Of a DNA stretch of 13,332 nt, positions 1-11,801 are shown in pieces. Each line of letters starts with the position of its first letter. Within the stretch, counting starts at the first letter, position 1. The stretch comes from a virus (Duplodnaviria > Heunggongvirae > Uroviricota > Caudoviricetes), in IMG/VR virus record IMGVR_UViG_2728369553_000011; one strand, given 5' to 3'. The notes under the pieces are model-generated. The model saw only the letters and a program-made list of their open reading frames with translations. It ran no database searches and was not told the DNA's origin. Position numbers and translations under genes: made by a program.

Positions 1-1224
1 ATGCTCCAGGAAATTAAACAGGGCAAGCGCAACATCCTGCTGAACGGTATTGGCGAGGTCAGTGGCGCCCTGGTTCATGATGAGATAGATGGCGCTGTTT
101 CCAAACACCGTCATCCACATGAGCGTAAAGCCGGCGGGAACAAACAACACGCCAGTCACGAACTCACGAATTGTCCTGCCGCGGGAAACGCGTGCAATGA
201 ACATACCTACAAACGGCGACCATGAAAGCCACCATCCCCAGTATAATAATGTCCAGCCCCCCAGCCAGTTGCTCGACTTGGGTTCATACGCGTAAAGGTT
301 GAACGTTTTACTCACCAGTTCCGACAGATAACCACCCGTATTTTCCACAAATGACTTCAGCAGAAGCACAGTGGGACCCAGGCACAAGACCAGCGCCAGG
401 AGCAACACCGCCAGGCCCAGATTAAGCTCAGACAGGATGCGTATTCCCTTGTCCAGGCCGGACACCACCGAAATCGTCGCTAACCCCGTGATGACCACGA
501 TCAAAATGACCTGTACCGTTTCATTGATGGGCACGCCGAAAAGATGGTTCAAACCGGCATTCACCTGCAATACACCGTAACCCAGCGATGTTGCAACGCC
601 AAAGACAGTGCCTATCACGGCGAAGATATCAACCGCGTGGCCTATAGGCCCGTAAATGCGATCGCCGATAATGGGATAGAGCGCAGAACGCAGCGTTAAA
701 GGCAGACCGTGACGGTAACTGAAAAAGGCCAGAATCAGCGCCACGATGGCATAAATTGCCCATGCGTGCAGACCCCAGTGGAAGAACGTCAGGCGCATGG
801 CTTCCTTCGCTGCCGCAACGGTCTCTGGAGTGCCGACAGGTGGCGAAAGATAATGCATCACAGGTTCGGCAACGCCAAAGAACATCAGGCCGATCCCCAT
901 CCCTGCCGAAAAAAGCATCGCGAACCAGGAGTGGTAGCTGAAATCAGGCTGCGCATGGTCTGGGCCCAGCTTTATATCACCGTAACGTGAGAGTCCAAGG
1001 AACGTGACGCTCAGTAAAATCAGGGCCACAGCAAGTATGTAGAACCAGCTGGCATTCGTGAAGATTTGTTGCTGAAGTAGTTTAAAATTTTTGTCGGCGA
1101 CATCCGGGAATACGGCGGCAAAGGCGACAAGAAGGAAAATTAGCAAAGCAGATGTAAAGAATACCGCTTTGTTAATCTGGCTTGTAGACTTCTTTGGGGT
1201 TGTATCATTTTCACTCATAATCAT
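1..1224 (-). CDS. BCCT-family (betaine/carnitine/choline) transporter, 5' portion only (N-terminal 408 aa); the gene continues past the left window edge
   Basis: Manual reverse-complement translation gives an unbroken frame from ATG at 1224 (MIMSENDTTPKKS...; alternative ATG at 1218) to position 1, which is why it is absent from the ORF track. Multiple hydrophobic helices and the BCCT signature WTLLYWGWWLSWSPFVGMFIARVSRGRTIREF (compare BetT [32 protein letters not shown]). Confidence 0.85.
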   Translation of the reverse strand, partial: MIMSENDTTPKKSTSQINKAVFFTSALLIFLLVAFAAVFPDVADKNFKLLQQQIFTNASWFYILAVALILLSVTFLGLSRYGDIKLGPDHAQPDFSYHSWFAMLFSAGMGIGLMFFGVAEPVMHYLSPPVGTPETVAAAKEAMRLTFFHWGLHAWAIYAIVALILAFFSYRHGLPLTLRSALYPIIGDRIYGPIGHAVDIFAVIGTVFGVATSLGYGVLQVNAGLNHLFGVPINETVQVILIVVITGLATISVVSGLDKGIRILSELNLGLAVLLLALVLCLGPTVLLLKSFVENTGGYLSELVSKTFNLYAYEPKSSNWLGGWTLLYWGWWLSWSPFVGMFIARVSRGRTIREFVTGVLFVPAGFTLMWMTVFGNSAIYLIMNQGATDLANTVQQDVALALFNFLEH

Positions 1225-1558
1225 TTATTCCATTAATTAAATCCGCACTGGATAGAAGGTACTACCTCTCACAGAGTAGCAAAGTTCAACTGGCTATGCG
1301 GGGTTAATCGGAATGCATGGTGGAATGAGTGCCGATACAAATCATCCTATATTCTAAGGAGTTTTAAGTTACTCAGCCTGCCAATTACTGGGGCATTTAA
1401 TTTGTATGATCTGTATCAAAGCTGGGATATAAGTTAAGTGAAGTATATTAGGCACGAATTACCAGCGTCTGCTCTTGGCACAAAGCGGACAACCACGCTA
1501 GCTCTACCCTGTGCCACAAAATGTCAATTTGCATCTGAACTAATGCACTTTAATCTCG

Positions 1559-1981
1559 TCACTTCAATAAATACCGAACATCCCCCTGATAAAACGACAA
1601 TATGCGCTGCATAACTTCGCTCTTCCGGCACTCGCGACAGATTATGTTTAGGCGACTGTCGTAGCGACGTATTTCTCCGTCAGGTAATGACCAGATAAGG
1701 TCCGGATCAACCACAACCGGTTTCTTCAGCTTTGCCCTAGATAGTTTTTTGCGGGCATTTTGCCAGTCCTTACGAGCCTGTTCAGACGGGAATAACCCGT
1801 AACCAGAGTTGTATACATCGCCACTGGCAACCAGCTCTCTGGCGAGAACGCTCATCAGATATCTTGTCGCACCTGTCTTGGCTTCCAGTTGCCGTAACGT
1901 CTCGCGCCCACTCCGGCGTACTAGTTCAACAACCTGCCCTTTAATTTTTTCCCGCTCTTCTTGTGTAAATACTTTTGCCAT
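1559..1981 (-). CDS. Hypothetical phage protein, 140 aa, basic, function unknown
   Basis: The track ORF 1559..1996 begins at a TTG. An internal ATG at 1981 (MAKVFTQEEREKIKGQ...) has a GGAGG Shine-Dalgarno 5 nt upstream and sits 15 nt after the TGA of the upstream ORF, suggesting co-transcription. No family recognised. Confidence 0.55.
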   Translation of the reverse strand: MAKVFTQEEREKIKGQVVELVRRSGRETLRQLEAKTGATRYLMSVLARELVASGDVYNSGYGLFPSEQARKDWQNARKKLSRAKLKKPVVVDPDLIWSLPDGEIRRYDSRLNIICRECRKSEVMQRILSFYQGDVRYLLK

Positions 1982-1996
1982 AAGCGCCTCCGGCAA

Positions 1997-2758
1997 TCAC
2001 TTTTCCGATACAACACGGCGGGAAGAATCAGTAATCTGTCGAACAATATCCCGGTGCTTGTTCAGCTCCCGCAGCGCGGCGCAGACTCGCTCCCACTTCT
2101 GGACATGATTTTTCGCCCGACGCAGTTCACGGTTTGCCATATGCAGCGATGGTAAAATCAGGTTATCCGCTTGCGTTTCAGTAAACGATGGCAACGACTG
2201 CACAATGTCCGCCACAGTTTCTGTTTTAATATCTTCCTGTGTTGCAGCTTCCTGTACTGGTAACGCAACACCGGCTAGCTGAGGAAAGGCTTTACCATCT
2301 GTTTCCGCTACCGATGCAGCTTTCGGCTCTGCTGGTAAATTACCGCCCGGCATGCAGTAACGAAATTTACCGTTCTGATTAACGCGAATCAGACGAGCTT
2401 TGCTGATTGCCATTGCCAGCGTTGAAGCCACTTTGCGGGATGTGGTACCGAACAACGTAGCCAGTTCATCCGCAGTTAGTGGACCACGTTGTTCAATCGT
2501 CGCAGTTAAATCGCTCTCTGAAATTTTCGCGACTGTTGCCGTGGTAGTTTCTTCCGGCAGTTCTGCCGGCGCTGGCTGTTCCTGCTGAACGTTGTTATCA
2601 GCCACACGCCAGGTGTACGCGCTTTTATCAACGAAACCAGCCTTTTTCAGTTCCCATAGTTCGTTCAGCACTTCTTCACGGCTGATATCAAGTCGCGCAG
2701 CAAGTTCTATGGATGTGGCTTTTCCCATTGCTTTCAGTGCGTCAAAAACAGTCTCCAT
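1997..2758 (-). CDS. Hypothetical phage protein with two winged-helix-like segments (253 aa from ATG 2758; 270 aa if the ATG at 2809 is used); sits at the position of ydaW in K-12 Rac
   Basis: Long - strand ORF. Two segments of similar character (…[29 protein letters not shown]… and …[31 protein letters not shown]…). ATG 2758 has GGGAGA 9 nt upstream and lies after the ydaV-like stop; ATG 2809 would overlap the ydaV-like 3' end by 29 nt. Confidence 0.6.
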
Positions 2759-2780: not shown

Positions 2781-3549
2781 TTACTTCGCAATTCCTGGCT
2801 GGACGACATTCGGACGCCAGCTCTCCCAGTTAAAATTCACCCATCGCCCGCCGTTCATGGTCATGCGATCCATAATCCTCTCGCCGAGCAATGTTTTCAT
2901 GGCCTCATAATTCAGGTTTGTCAGCATCCCCACGCTGCGCATCGACGCTGTCCGGCGATCAACAATCTGGTGCAGCACCACCTGCTCGTTTTTTGTCTCG
3001 CGCTGAATGCCAATTTCATCAAGAACCAGCAGATCCACTTGGCACAGTTCCCGCAAAAATTTTTCGCCTGATTGCCCGTCGTCATAGCTGGCGTGTAGGG
3101 CACTCATGACATCAGCCACGGTAACCACAATCACTGTCTGGCCATCTTTCAGCAGGCGATTCCCGATAGCCGCCGCCAGATGGTTTTTTCCGGTACCAGG
3201 TTTTCCGCTGAACGCAAAATTTGTACACCCGGTCATCAGTTCATCAGCGATGGATTTCGCCTGACTCAACGCGTATCGCTGCCCTTCGTTCTGCACCTGG
3301 TAANNNNNNNNNNNNNNNNNNNNNNNNNNNNNNNNNNNCGAAAACGAGCATTTGCGGTGCAATGGCTGGATGCCAGAGCGATTCAGAATTTTTTCCACCC
3401 GCAACTGACGATTCTGACGGTTGATCTCCTCACAACGTTTCTGGCCTTCGGAAAGTTGCCACTCGCGCCACTCCGCTACCGTTTTGAATGGGGCGGTTAC
3501 ATGTGGCGGGGCCAGTCTGCGGATACGTTCAAGAATGCCNNNNNNNNNN
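2781..3549 (-). CDS. ydaV: DnaC/IstB-like AAA+ helicase loader (phage P-like replication protein), interrupted by N-masked gaps; true start falls in or next to the 10-N run
   Basis: Walker [18 protein letters not shown] and Walker B LLVLDEIG. Frame stays open in the same phase on both sides of the 35-N run. Length from the 10-N run to the stop is about 252-256 aa, close to the recalled 248-aa YdaV. Stop TAA at 2781-2783. Confidence 0.75.
3304..3338. other. Run of 35 N (masked or unsequenced bases) inside the DnaC-like gene
   Basis: Literal N characters. The frame is open and in phase on both sides. Confidence 0.99.
3540..3549. other. Run of 10 N at the ydaU-like stop / ydaV-like start junction
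   Basis: Literal N characters directly next to the TAA of the ydaU-like gene (3550-3552). Confidence 0.99.
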
Positions 3550-4338
3550 TTACCCCCTGAAGCCTGGCGGGATCGCACTATCCGGTAACGAGACGGTGTT
3601 AACCTGTCGGAGTAACGTCTCAGGTCGAACACCTTTTGGCGCGAACAAGCCCTGGTATTCATTGGCGATGCTGTGTCGAATCACCTGCTCAGGTGAAAAA
3701 CCCTGCTGGCGGAATTTTTCCAGCTCCCGTATCGCCCCGTTAGCGCCCTGCTCCGTTCGAATCGGTTTTCGCAATGCCTGCCTGAACTGAACCCACTCAT
3801 GCCAGAGTGTTTCCGGCAACCAGTCAGGCAGCTCGATAGCCTCCGGTTCGAATTTTTTAGACGCTCGTTTTTGGCGAGGGGGATTTAGGGGGAGATAAGT
3901 ATTTATATCTTCCTCTTTCTCTTCCTCTGGTAACGCTTTTTGATCCGTTTTTGTAACGCTGGCAGCGTTACCTTTTCGTTTCAGTTCTCGTATTTTTGTT
4001 ACTCTCTCGTTTGTAACCGCCCGTTTTTTAGAGCTTTTCCCGTTATGGCGCTCAAAGTTAGGAAGCGACAACACACCATTAGTTTCGACCAGCCATCCAA
4101 CCTGAATTAACGCATCAGCAAAACCAGCCATAAAAGTGATGCGATCTATTGCACTTTTTGTAACGCCGCGAGCGTTACACTCTGCGTTACCGTCTATCAT
4201 TTGTTGATCCGCCCATGCCCAGAAGCGAATGACTTTCCCTAATGCGGCATCTGGATCAATATTCAGAATCTCAGCAAGCCTGAATATTTCCGGCTTATCC
4301 GGCGTAATAACTTCGAGCTTTATCCAGTTTGAAGCCAT
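3550..4338 (-). CDS. ydaU: YdaU-like replication initiation / replisome organiser protein (lambda O analogue by position), 262 aa
   Basis: ATG at 4338 with AAGGTGA Shine-Dalgarno 6 nt upstream; stop TAA at 3550-3552. Acidic/basic linker (EEEKEEDINTYLPLNPPRQKRASKK). Sits between the cII-like ydaT and the DnaC-like loader. Contains palindromic repeats in its coding sequence. Confidence 0.7.
   Translation of the reverse strand: MASNWIKLEVITPDKPEIFRLAEILNIDPDAALGKVIRFWAWADQQMIDGNAECNARGVTKSAIDRITFMAGFADALIQVGWLVETNGVLSLPNFERHNGKSSKKRAVTNERVTKIRELKRKGNAASVTKTDQKALPEEEKEEDINTYLPLNPPRQKRASKKFEPEAIELPDWLPETLWHEWVQFRQALRKPIRTEQGANGAIRELEKFRQQGFSPEQVIRHSIANEYQGLFAPKGVRPETLLRQVNTVSLPDSAIPPGFRG
3953..3971. 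repeat. 19-bp palindrome GTAACGCT-GGC-AGCGTTAC, copy 1, inside the ydaU-like coding sequence
   Basis: Perfect 8-bp inverted arms read directly. Flanked by a GGTAACGCT half-site (3929-3937) and CGTTTTTGTAAC-like direct repeats up to about 4030. Confidence 0.75.
4160..4178. repeat. 19-bp palindrome GTAACGCC-GCG-AGCGTTAC, copy 2 (one arm mismatch), inside the ydaU-like coding sequence; extra GCGTTAC half-site at 4184-4190
   Basis: Read directly from sequence. Confidence 0.7.
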
Positions 4339-5168: not shown

Positions 5169-5588
5169 ATGGTTCATGAAGATAAAGCGCGTAAAGAGTT
5201 CGCCAGTAGGCTTGCGCTAGCCTGTGAAAACGCTGGTTATGAACAACATGGAAGGCAGGCAGAAATTGCCCGTCGAATGAAATTAACACCAAAAGCGGTT
5301 AGCAAATGGTTTAATGGTGAAACAATTCCTCGCCGAGAGAAATTAAGGGAATTAGCAACACTCATTGGAACAACACCAACCTATCTTTTGGGAGAGGATA
5401 CAGAAGAAAGTGGACAGATACGTTTCTATCAGGAGTTAAATCCAAGACAAAAAATCATCATTGACCTTCTGGACGAGCTCCCTGACAGTGAGACAGATGA
5501 ACTTTTAAAAACTCTTGAGGAGAAAAAACAGAAGTACAATGCAATTTACGAAGAGTTAGCACGAAAGAAAAAACAAAAAGCCTCTTAA
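5169..5588 (+). CDS. racR: RacR, CI-like prophage repressor (139 aa as read here)
   Basis: ORF MVHEDKARKEFASRLALACENAGYEQHGRQAEIARRMKLTPKAVSKWFNGE with an HTH segment. Divergent to ydaS/ydaT. No Shine-Dalgarno upstream, and a -10-like TATCAT ends 7 nt before the ATG. Confidence 0.8.
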   Translation: MVHEDKARKEFASRLALACENAGYEQHGRQAEIARRMKLTPKAVSKWFNGETIPRREKLRELATLIGTTPTYLLGEDTEESGQIRFYQELNPRQKIIIDLLDELPDSETDELLKTLEEKKQKYNAIYEELARKKKQKAS

Positions 5589-11404: not shown

Positions 11405-11599
11405 ATGAGATATGACAATGTTAAACCATGTCCATTTTGTGGTTGTCCATCAGTAACGGTGAAAGCCATTTCAGGATATTACCGAGCGAAGTGTAACGGA
11501 TGCGAATCCCGAACCGGTTATGGTGGAAGTGAAAAAGAAGCACTCGAAAGATGGAATAAACGAACCACTGGAAATAATAATGGAGGTGTTCATGTATAA
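11405..11599 (+). CDS. ralR: RalR (Lar), restriction-alleviation protein / type I toxin DNase, 64 aa, zinc-ribbon-like
   Basis: ATG 11405. Translation MRYDNVKPCPFCGCPSVTVKAISGYYRAKCNGCESRTGYGGSEKEALERWNKRTTGNNNGGVHV, with CPFC…CNGC motifs. The track ORF 11366..11599 is an extended frame. Confidence 0.85.
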   Translation: MRYDNVKPCPFCGCPSVTVKAISGYYRAKCNGCESRTGYGGSEKEALERWNKRTTGNNNGGVHV

Positions 11600-11801
11600 A
11601 ATTACCGCCACTATTGAAAAGGAAGGTGGCACTCCTACTAACTGGACAAGATATTCAAAATCTAAACTAACGAAATCAGAATGCGAAAAAATGCTCTCAG
11701 GTAAAAAAGAAGCAGGCGTTTCCAGAGAGCAGAAAGTAAAATTGATAAATTTTAATTGCGAGAAACTTCAGTCCTCGAGAATTGCATTGTATTCAAATTA
11801 A
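11592..11801 (+). CDS. ydaC: YdaC, small Rac prophage protein (69 aa)
   Basis: ATG 11592 with GGAGG 5 nt upstream; overlaps the ralR 3' end by 8 nt. Translation MYKITATIEKEGGTPTNWTRYSKSKLTKSECEKMLSGKKEAGVSREQKVKLINFNCEKLQSSRIALYSN. Confidence 0.75.
   Translation: MYKITATIEKEGGTPTNWTRYSKSKLTKSECEKMLSGKKEAGVSREQKVKLINFNCEKLQSSRIALYSN

Follow-up and report, generated by a model that had tools for sequence, protein, structure and literature searches.

A DUF977 gene at the end of a prophage replication module, most likely a longer member of the lambda Ren family

Introduction

What is the small, basic protein whose gene stands last on the phage side of a prophage remnant, just short of a transporter gene? 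The question is raised by a virus record of IMG/VR (IMGVR_UViG_2728369553_000011, Caudoviricetes), a stretch of 13,332 nucleotides to which we refer throughout as the window. As we describe below, the gene encodes a member of the DUF977 family that most likely belongs, by profile comparison, with the Ren proteins of lambdoid phages. This has little weight as a discovery, as Pfam, PHROGs and RefSeq already contain the gene, its family and the connection to lambda Ren. What interest remains lies in how Ren, an early lambda protein, works and in what triggers the classic RexAB exclusion system. The abundant DUF977 form, whose conserved motif and Cys pair lend themselves to mutation, could serve as a convenient way into this old question.

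The Gene and Its Start

The ORF lies on the minus strand, a point left unstated in the initial annotation. Its ATG occupies positions 1981–1979, and its stop codon ends at 1559. The ORF upstream, of the DUF1627 family, stops with a TGA at 1999–1997, after which come 15 nt (TTGCCGGAGGCGCTT) and then the ATG. The features first reported for this start, namely an ORF of 140 aa, a GGAGG 5 nt before its ATG and a 15-nt gap after the upstream stop, can all be read in the sequence (Table 1). The same is true of the composition. The protein had been called Lys/Arg-rich on the strength of the peptide ARKDWQNARKKLSRAKLKKP, which is present, and Lys and Arg indeed account for 29 of the 140 residues (21%), as against 18 Asp and Glu, giving a pI of 9.9. 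The CRECRK sequence reported near the C-terminus is there as well, with its C-R-E-C codons at 1639–1628. Cys occurs twice in the whole chain, and His is absent.

The ORF is a real gene under purifying selection, because its dN/dS is 0.06–0.29 against 15 homologous loci, with synonymous changes predominating, and because RefSeq calls the same 423-bp CDS (WP_016239946.1, "DUF977 family protein"). In 15 homologous loci a purine-rich Shine-Dalgarno sequence (GGAGG, AGGAGG, GGGGG or GGAGA) is found at equal distance from the start, despite differing upstream genes. A TTG at 1996 was considered as an alternative start and rejected, since every homologue begins at the aligned ATG or GTG behind the purine-rich Shine-Dalgarno sequence. 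Two shadow ORFs on the plus strand (1438–1614 and 1809–2108) were also rejected, in view of the strong codon constraint on the minus strand.

Table 1. Features at and around the DUF977 gene, in window coordinates
Feature	Position	Strand	Basis or remark
Conserved 3′ flank of ~90 nt accompanying the DUF977 gene	1466..1558	minus	far end is the mosaic boundary
DUF977/Ren-like CDS, 140 aa, 423 bp	1559..1981	minus	ORF list, Pfam, PHROG 142, RefSeq WP_016239946.1
C-terminal motif Y-x4-N-x-I-C-x-E-C-R-x-S-x2-M-x-R-[IV]-L-x-F-Y, residues 107–131	1589..1663	minus	shared with lambda Ren; CxxC codons 1628–1639
Basic helix (residues 67–85) and low-confidence linker (86–110)	1652..1783	minus	AF2, hhalign
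N-terminal winged helix-turn-helix, residues 7–63	1793..1963	minus	AF2, Foldseek, Kinch 2009
Shine-Dalgarno GGAGG	1987..1991	minus	5-nt spacer before the DUF977 ATG
DUF1627 tandem winged-helix gene	1997..2758	minus	RefSeq start; longest ORF to 2809
Replication module	2781..4338	minus	DnaC/IstB-like ydaV 2781–~3540 and initiator 3550–4338

Family Membership and Relation to Lambda Ren

The initial annotation had recognized no family, and had held that a confident assignment to a known one would count against its description. The protein is now confidently assigned to DUF977 and to PHROG 142. The Pfam DUF977 model (PF06163) scores 99.9 bits (E = 1.6e-28), well over its gathering cut-off of 22.1 bits, and pairs residues 1–135 with model positions 1–133 of 134. 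With this end-to-end match the protein is a typical member of the DUF977/LygF family, from which it shows no difference. PHROG 142, named "Ren-like exclusion protein," matches residues 1–137 (E = 5.9e-45), and RefSeq uses the DUF977 name, which the identical gene bears in E. coli ECONIH4 and 13 further genomes. GenBank phage records call the DUF977 proteins "LygF," "Ren-like exclusion protein" or "DUF977 family protein"; of these, "LygF" is a mere locus name, from the Sdr I region of Salmonella Enteritidis adjoining ydaO. Copies 66–95% identical are found in Rac-type, Stx and other lambdoid phages. NCBIfam has no family for the protein, a sequence search of the PDB gave only noise (best E = 0.34), and among the defense-system models of PADLOC-DB no family was matched at E ≤ 1.

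The connection to lambda Ren (NP_040633, 96 aa) comes from several comparisons. Lambda Ren, taken from NC_001416, matches the same PHROG (E = 1.6e-41, residues 1–95). When a 19-sequence DUF977 alignment was compared with a 14-sequence lambda-Ren alignment by hhalign, the profiles aligned over 83 columns at a probability of 96.8% (E = 2.8e-10), pairing residues 18–134 of our protein with residues 8–95 of Ren, that is, the winged helix and the C-terminal motif. Pairwise similarity is confined to the C-terminus: BLASTP aligns the last 20 residues alone, at 45% identity (E = 5e-6), and lambda Ren did not match the Pfam DUF977 model at E ≤ 10. Both proteins have an N-terminal winged helix, and both carry the motif N-x-[IV]-x-x-E-C-R-x-S-x-x-M-x-R-[VI]-L-x-x-Y at the C-terminal end. 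In gene order, too, the two agree: each gene stands between the replication genes and the variable or nin region.

The differences are also clear. Our protein is 44 aa longer, and a basic helix and a linker lie between the two shared parts. It has a Cys (C115) where lambda-type Ren has an invariant Phe, which creates the CxxC. In lambda, the end of P (40283) overlaps the start of ren (40280), whereas the DUF977 gene is set off by 15 nt and has its own GGAGG. In sum, the sequence and profile evidence places the protein, most likely, in the Ren family of lambdoid phages, as its longer DUF977/LygF form. Its function could differ from that of Ren, because the inserted residues and the second Cys are not found in Ren.

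Position at the End of the Replication Module

In its gene order, the window as a whole is that of a Rac-type prophage remnant sitting at ttcA; positions 1200–2850 are shared at 100% identity with E. coli ECONIH4 and with 13 further complete genomes. Starting from the integrase, one meets intR, xisR, rcbA, ralR, recT, recE, racC, ydaE, kilR, sieB and the repressor (5169–5588), after which the early operon runs leftward, with a Cro-like gene, ydaT, the replication initiator, the DnaC-like ydaV, DUF1627 and finally DUF977. The DUF977 gene shares its strand with the Cro-like, ydaT, initiator and ydaV genes. Its neighbors, which RefSeq also annotates, were assigned to families as follows: the DUF1627 gene matches Pfam DUF1627 (E = 4e-97), as well as PHROG 630 from residue 18, ydaV matches Pfam IstB_IS21 (E = 2.6e-18), and the initiator matches PHROG 2509, replication initiation protein (E = 4.7e-88). 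A promoter and terminator scan of 1150–2900 gave no promoter-like site and no minus-strand terminator, only two weak terminator-like matches on the plus strand.

The initial annotation had coupled the ORF to the one upstream. Locally this holds; elsewhere, the same gene with its Shine-Dalgarno sequence follows other neighbors. Among the loci we fetched, the upstream gene was DUF1627 (gap of 14–15 nt), an O-like replication initiator of PHROG 3729 or PHROG 391 (gap of 40 nt), a DnaC-like loader directly (gap of 14 nt) or, in PhiR46_1 (locus L018), a 3′-5′ exonuclease-like gene that overlaps the DUF977 start by 1 nt. Co-occurrence with the upstream gene, which had been put forward as a check, gave a divided answer: a contiguous DUF1627 and DUF977 pair was found in 2067 genomes, as against 4083 that carry DUF977, or about half. 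An obligate coupling to DUF1627 is therefore rejected, both by the other upstream genes in other prophages and by the absence of the pair in about half of the carriers. As the Shine-Dalgarno sequence is kept with the DUF977 gene in every context, what the gene is tied to is not DUF1627 but the close of the replication module, the place taken by ren in the O-P-ren order of lambda (NC_001416).

Several other observations were made in this neighborhood. The second winged helix of the DUF1627 protein (residues 100–151 of the 270-aa ORF, 1997–2809) weakly matches PHROG 142 (E = 7.4e-5), and also PHROG 16568, "Ren-like exclusion protein"; going by these matches, the adjacent DUF1627 and DUF977 genes may share a related winged-helix domain. 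The initiators of PHROGs 2509, 3729 and 391 share a C-terminal tail, ...(E/S)(I/A)IPPGFRG (window 3550–4338; L010, 4884–5960; L017, 2941–3960), which may be a common docking peptide, e.g., for helicase or loader. Masked runs of N at 3304–3338 (35 bases) and 3540–3549 (10 bases) fall within the ydaV region and produce artificial long ORFs with X residues, and coordinates beyond them are offset by 16 nt relative to the ECONIH4 record. The recE/recT, kilR, sieB and intR genes of the window are typical of Rac. The sole Rfam match in the window is the RalA antitoxin sRNA (RF02694, 219 bits), which lies at 11598–11776 on the minus strand, opposite ralR; the Rfam and tRNA scans gave nothing near the DUF977 gene.

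Proposed Function

From homology and position, we think it rather probable that the protein is the DUF977 form of Ren, closing the early-right operon, and that it is a replication accessory that protects against Rex-type exclusion. In this view, the early-right (pR-type) operon of a Rac-type prophage would end with the DUF977 gene. Its own Shine-Dalgarno sequence would drive its translation directly after the replication genes, in the slot that ren has after O and P, and the protein would thus be produced alongside the replication proteins after derepression. There it might serve as an accessory of phage replication initiation and keep Rex-type exclusion by resident prophages from aborting replication, the likely route being protein-protein or DNA contacts at the replication complex.

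The model for this proposal is lambda. Heteroimmune lambda that is mutant in ren grows poorly on Rex+ lysogens, a defect whose suppressors map in O and P (supplement, bioRxiv 10.1101/2021.04.19.439022). Ren interacts with RexA and RexB in two-hybrid assays (bioRxiv 10.1101/2021.04.19.439022 supplement; PMC3224144). More generally, ren goes with replication modules of the initiator and helicase-loader kind (supplement, bioRxiv 10.1101/2021.04.19.439022). The Rex-resistance phenotype and the two-hybrid contacts are those of lambda Ren alone; in the literature we found no functional studies of DUF977/LygF, only fold recognition. No rexAB-like genes were seen in the window. In the strain at hand the intact gene is probably kept silent by the prophage repressor and matters little at present, the prophage being a remnant truncated about 90 nt downstream.

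Four other readings, weighed here and in the sections that follow, are less well supported than the Ren-type one. The first is that the protein serves replication purely, for example by modulating the initiator, the loader of the helicase or the change from the theta to the rolling-circle mode, with no part in exclusion, the Rex phenotype of ren being a side effect. The invariable place of DUF977 after the last replication gene, across initiator types, agrees with such a role, and so does the statement that ren is "likely involved in DNA replication," with its suppressors in O and P (bioRxiv 10.1101/2021.04.19.439022). Lambda ren is, however, dispensable for replication and for plaques in Rex- hosts (bioRxiv 10.1101/2021.04.19.439022 supplement), and in PhiR46_1 the gene before DUF977 is not a replication gene at all. 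We consider this reading unlikely.

The Winged Helix and the Downstream Boundary

A winged helix in a basic protein also brings to mind a transcription factor. The AlphaFold2 model of the whole protein has a mean pLDDT of 75, which rises to about 90 in the winged helix, where helices at 7–24, 29–36 and 40–53 are followed by a β-hairpin. Kinch et al. (2009; PMC2686095) had arrived at the same fold for DUF977 by means of HHpred and COMPASS. In Foldseek searches of the PDB, the matches were the winged helices of MarR, GntR, ArsR/CadC, AraR and Zalpha proteins, all of them weak (E > 0.02, TM about 0.35); nothing reached E ≤ 0.001 in the PDB and BFVD, and no full-length analogue was found there. 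The basic helix follows the winged helix. Net charge is +7 over residues 71–90, and the Lys/Arg-rich stretch falls mostly within an insertion of about 30–45 aa that has no counterpart in lambda Ren by hhalign. This segment of basic helix and linker is strongly conserved among homologues of 66–98% identity. Short helices are predicted at residues 116–134, near the C-terminus.

The 3′ side of the gene bears on the same issue. The initial annotation had placed the gene last on the phage side, before a transporter junction, and so it proves: prophage homology ends at about 1466–1471, and the BCCT transporter gene begins at 1218, on the minus strand. In a blastn comparison of the junction with 13 loci, homology stopped at the same 1466–1471 in 8 independent ones. 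The junction thus falls on a general mosaic boundary, which lies about 90 nt past the DUF977 stop, and the DUF977 gene marks a sharp limit beyond which lies variable prophage cargo. In our window, the cargo consists of five non-phage genes, encoding a BCCT transporter, a DUF2254 protein, a LysR regulator, a gamma-glutamylcyclotransferase and an MFS transporter; this island ends at an IS1 adjoining uspF. The same DUF977/BCCT junction is common to 189 of 5426 E. coli genomes. In E. coli W, where the prophage is complete, DUF977 is followed by a trio of genes for a DUF262 protein, an AAA-ATPase and a hypothetical protein, then by hok, nin/Q-type genes, tRNAs and lysis genes.

A transcription factor of the MarR/ArsR/GntR type would bind phage DNA and regulate neighbors, e.g., the downstream cargo or the nin region. 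Besides the confidently modeled winged helix, its DNA-binding-domain matches and the adjoining basic helix, two annotations lean this way: truncated Ren homologues are labeled "MarR family transcriptional regulator," and PHROG 2391, "DNA binding protein," matches our protein (E = 1e-5). The structural likeness, however, is limited to the predicted fold of residues 7–63, i.e., a generic winged helix of 60–70 residues, with 10–20% identity to the MarR/ArsR/GntR regulators, whose dimerization and effector domains our protein does not have. No MarR, ArsR or GntR model of Pfam or NCBIfam was reached. Moreover, the downstream genes vary between prophages while the DUF977 protein stays conserved, and a fixed local target is therefore disfavored. 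The chance that the protein is such a regulator appears slim to us.

Some further features of the boundary may be recorded. The 3′ flank folds slightly better than shuffled sequence (z-score -2.3) and has no canonical intrinsic terminator on the minus strand; with folding so little above the shuffled level, an RNA element is not claimed. The non-phage island takes the place of the late half of a Rac-type prophage (window 1–1470; L001, 6891–14019). The lambda counterpart of the slot past the boundary is tR2 together with the beginning of the nin region. The cargo trio of E. coli W looks defense-like, and in strain GN06489 the cargo consists of two hypothetical proteins (L002, 7783–9100; L019, 1830–3909).

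The Cysteine Pair

In the 19-sequence DUF977 alignment, the invariant columns of the C-terminal region are Y107, N112, C115, C118, S121, M124, R126 and F130. Both Cys of the CxxC are thus conserved, down to 31% identity. The Phe that takes the place of C115 in lambda-type Ren is invariant in the 14-sequence alignment.

As judged from these alignments, the CxxC is a subfamily feature and not a zinc finger, because two Cys and no His cannot make a four-ligand site in one chain. No zinc-finger or zinc-ribbon model matched the protein. A nucleic-acid binder that acts through the C-terminal CxxC in a zinc- or redox-dependent manner is hence highly improbable, in spite of the invariance of the pair: the number of ligands falls short, no model is matched, and, as lambda-type Ren has Phe at the first Cys, the pair does not define the family fold.

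Distribution

Of 5426 complete E. coli genomes, 4205 (about 77%) carry the DUF977 gene. Its copies number 7785 in total, with a median of 2 per genome and no more than 7 in any. The gene also occurs in 24 sequenced phages. In database clusters, the DUF977 form outnumbers the lambda-type Ren by 867 to 155. The family is nonetheless narrow and enterobacterial, and sparse outside Escherichia and Shigella: a scan of 185,579 species genomes gave 12 loci, in Escherichia and Shigella and on MAG contigs resembling E. coli contamination, and phmmer against 1.84 billion representatives gave 101 matches, many of them fragments.

The abundance of intact copies also speaks to the idea, behind the earlier suggestion of a toxicity test, that induction of the prophage releases the protein as a small, basic toxin or killer of the host. 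Its size and pI would fit, and the nearby Rac genes ydaS, ydaT and kilR are annotated "toxin" or "killing"; yet we find the idea barely credible, as lambda Ren reportedly causes neither P-lethality nor replicative killing (PMC3640518), the intact gene persists in 77% of E. coli at up to 7 copies per genome, no defense or toxin model is matched, and no adjacent antitoxin-like partner travels with the DUF977 gene.

A bolder version of the Ren-type reading, to which we would give only a small chance, is that DUF977 represents an extended, Cys-pair branch of Ren that acts as a general antagonist or decoy of Rex-like abortive-infection sensors of replication initiation. It could act in trans from prophage copies, and a CxxC between subunits might form a zinc- or redox-sensitive dimer switch. 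If this were true, the intact copies in the prophages and prophage remnants of about 77% of E. coli genomes could shape which superinfecting lambdoid phages succeed.

Two aspects of the distribution deserve mention. DUF977 copies 88–95% identical occur on short contigs assigned to MAGs of Collinsella, Bacillota and Veillonella (loci L005, L006, L008 and L009); these copies are most likely mis-binned E. coli prophage DNA rather than a true occurrence. In Rac of K-12 MG1655, ydaW is a C-terminally truncated DUF1627 pseudogene, no DUF977 gene is present, and rzoD/trkG come next (L020, 2498–2950). The K-12 Rac deletion took the 3′ end of the DUF1627 gene, leaving the ydaW pseudogene, together with the DUF977 gene, and it may be because of this deletion that the DUF977 gene has no K-12 name.
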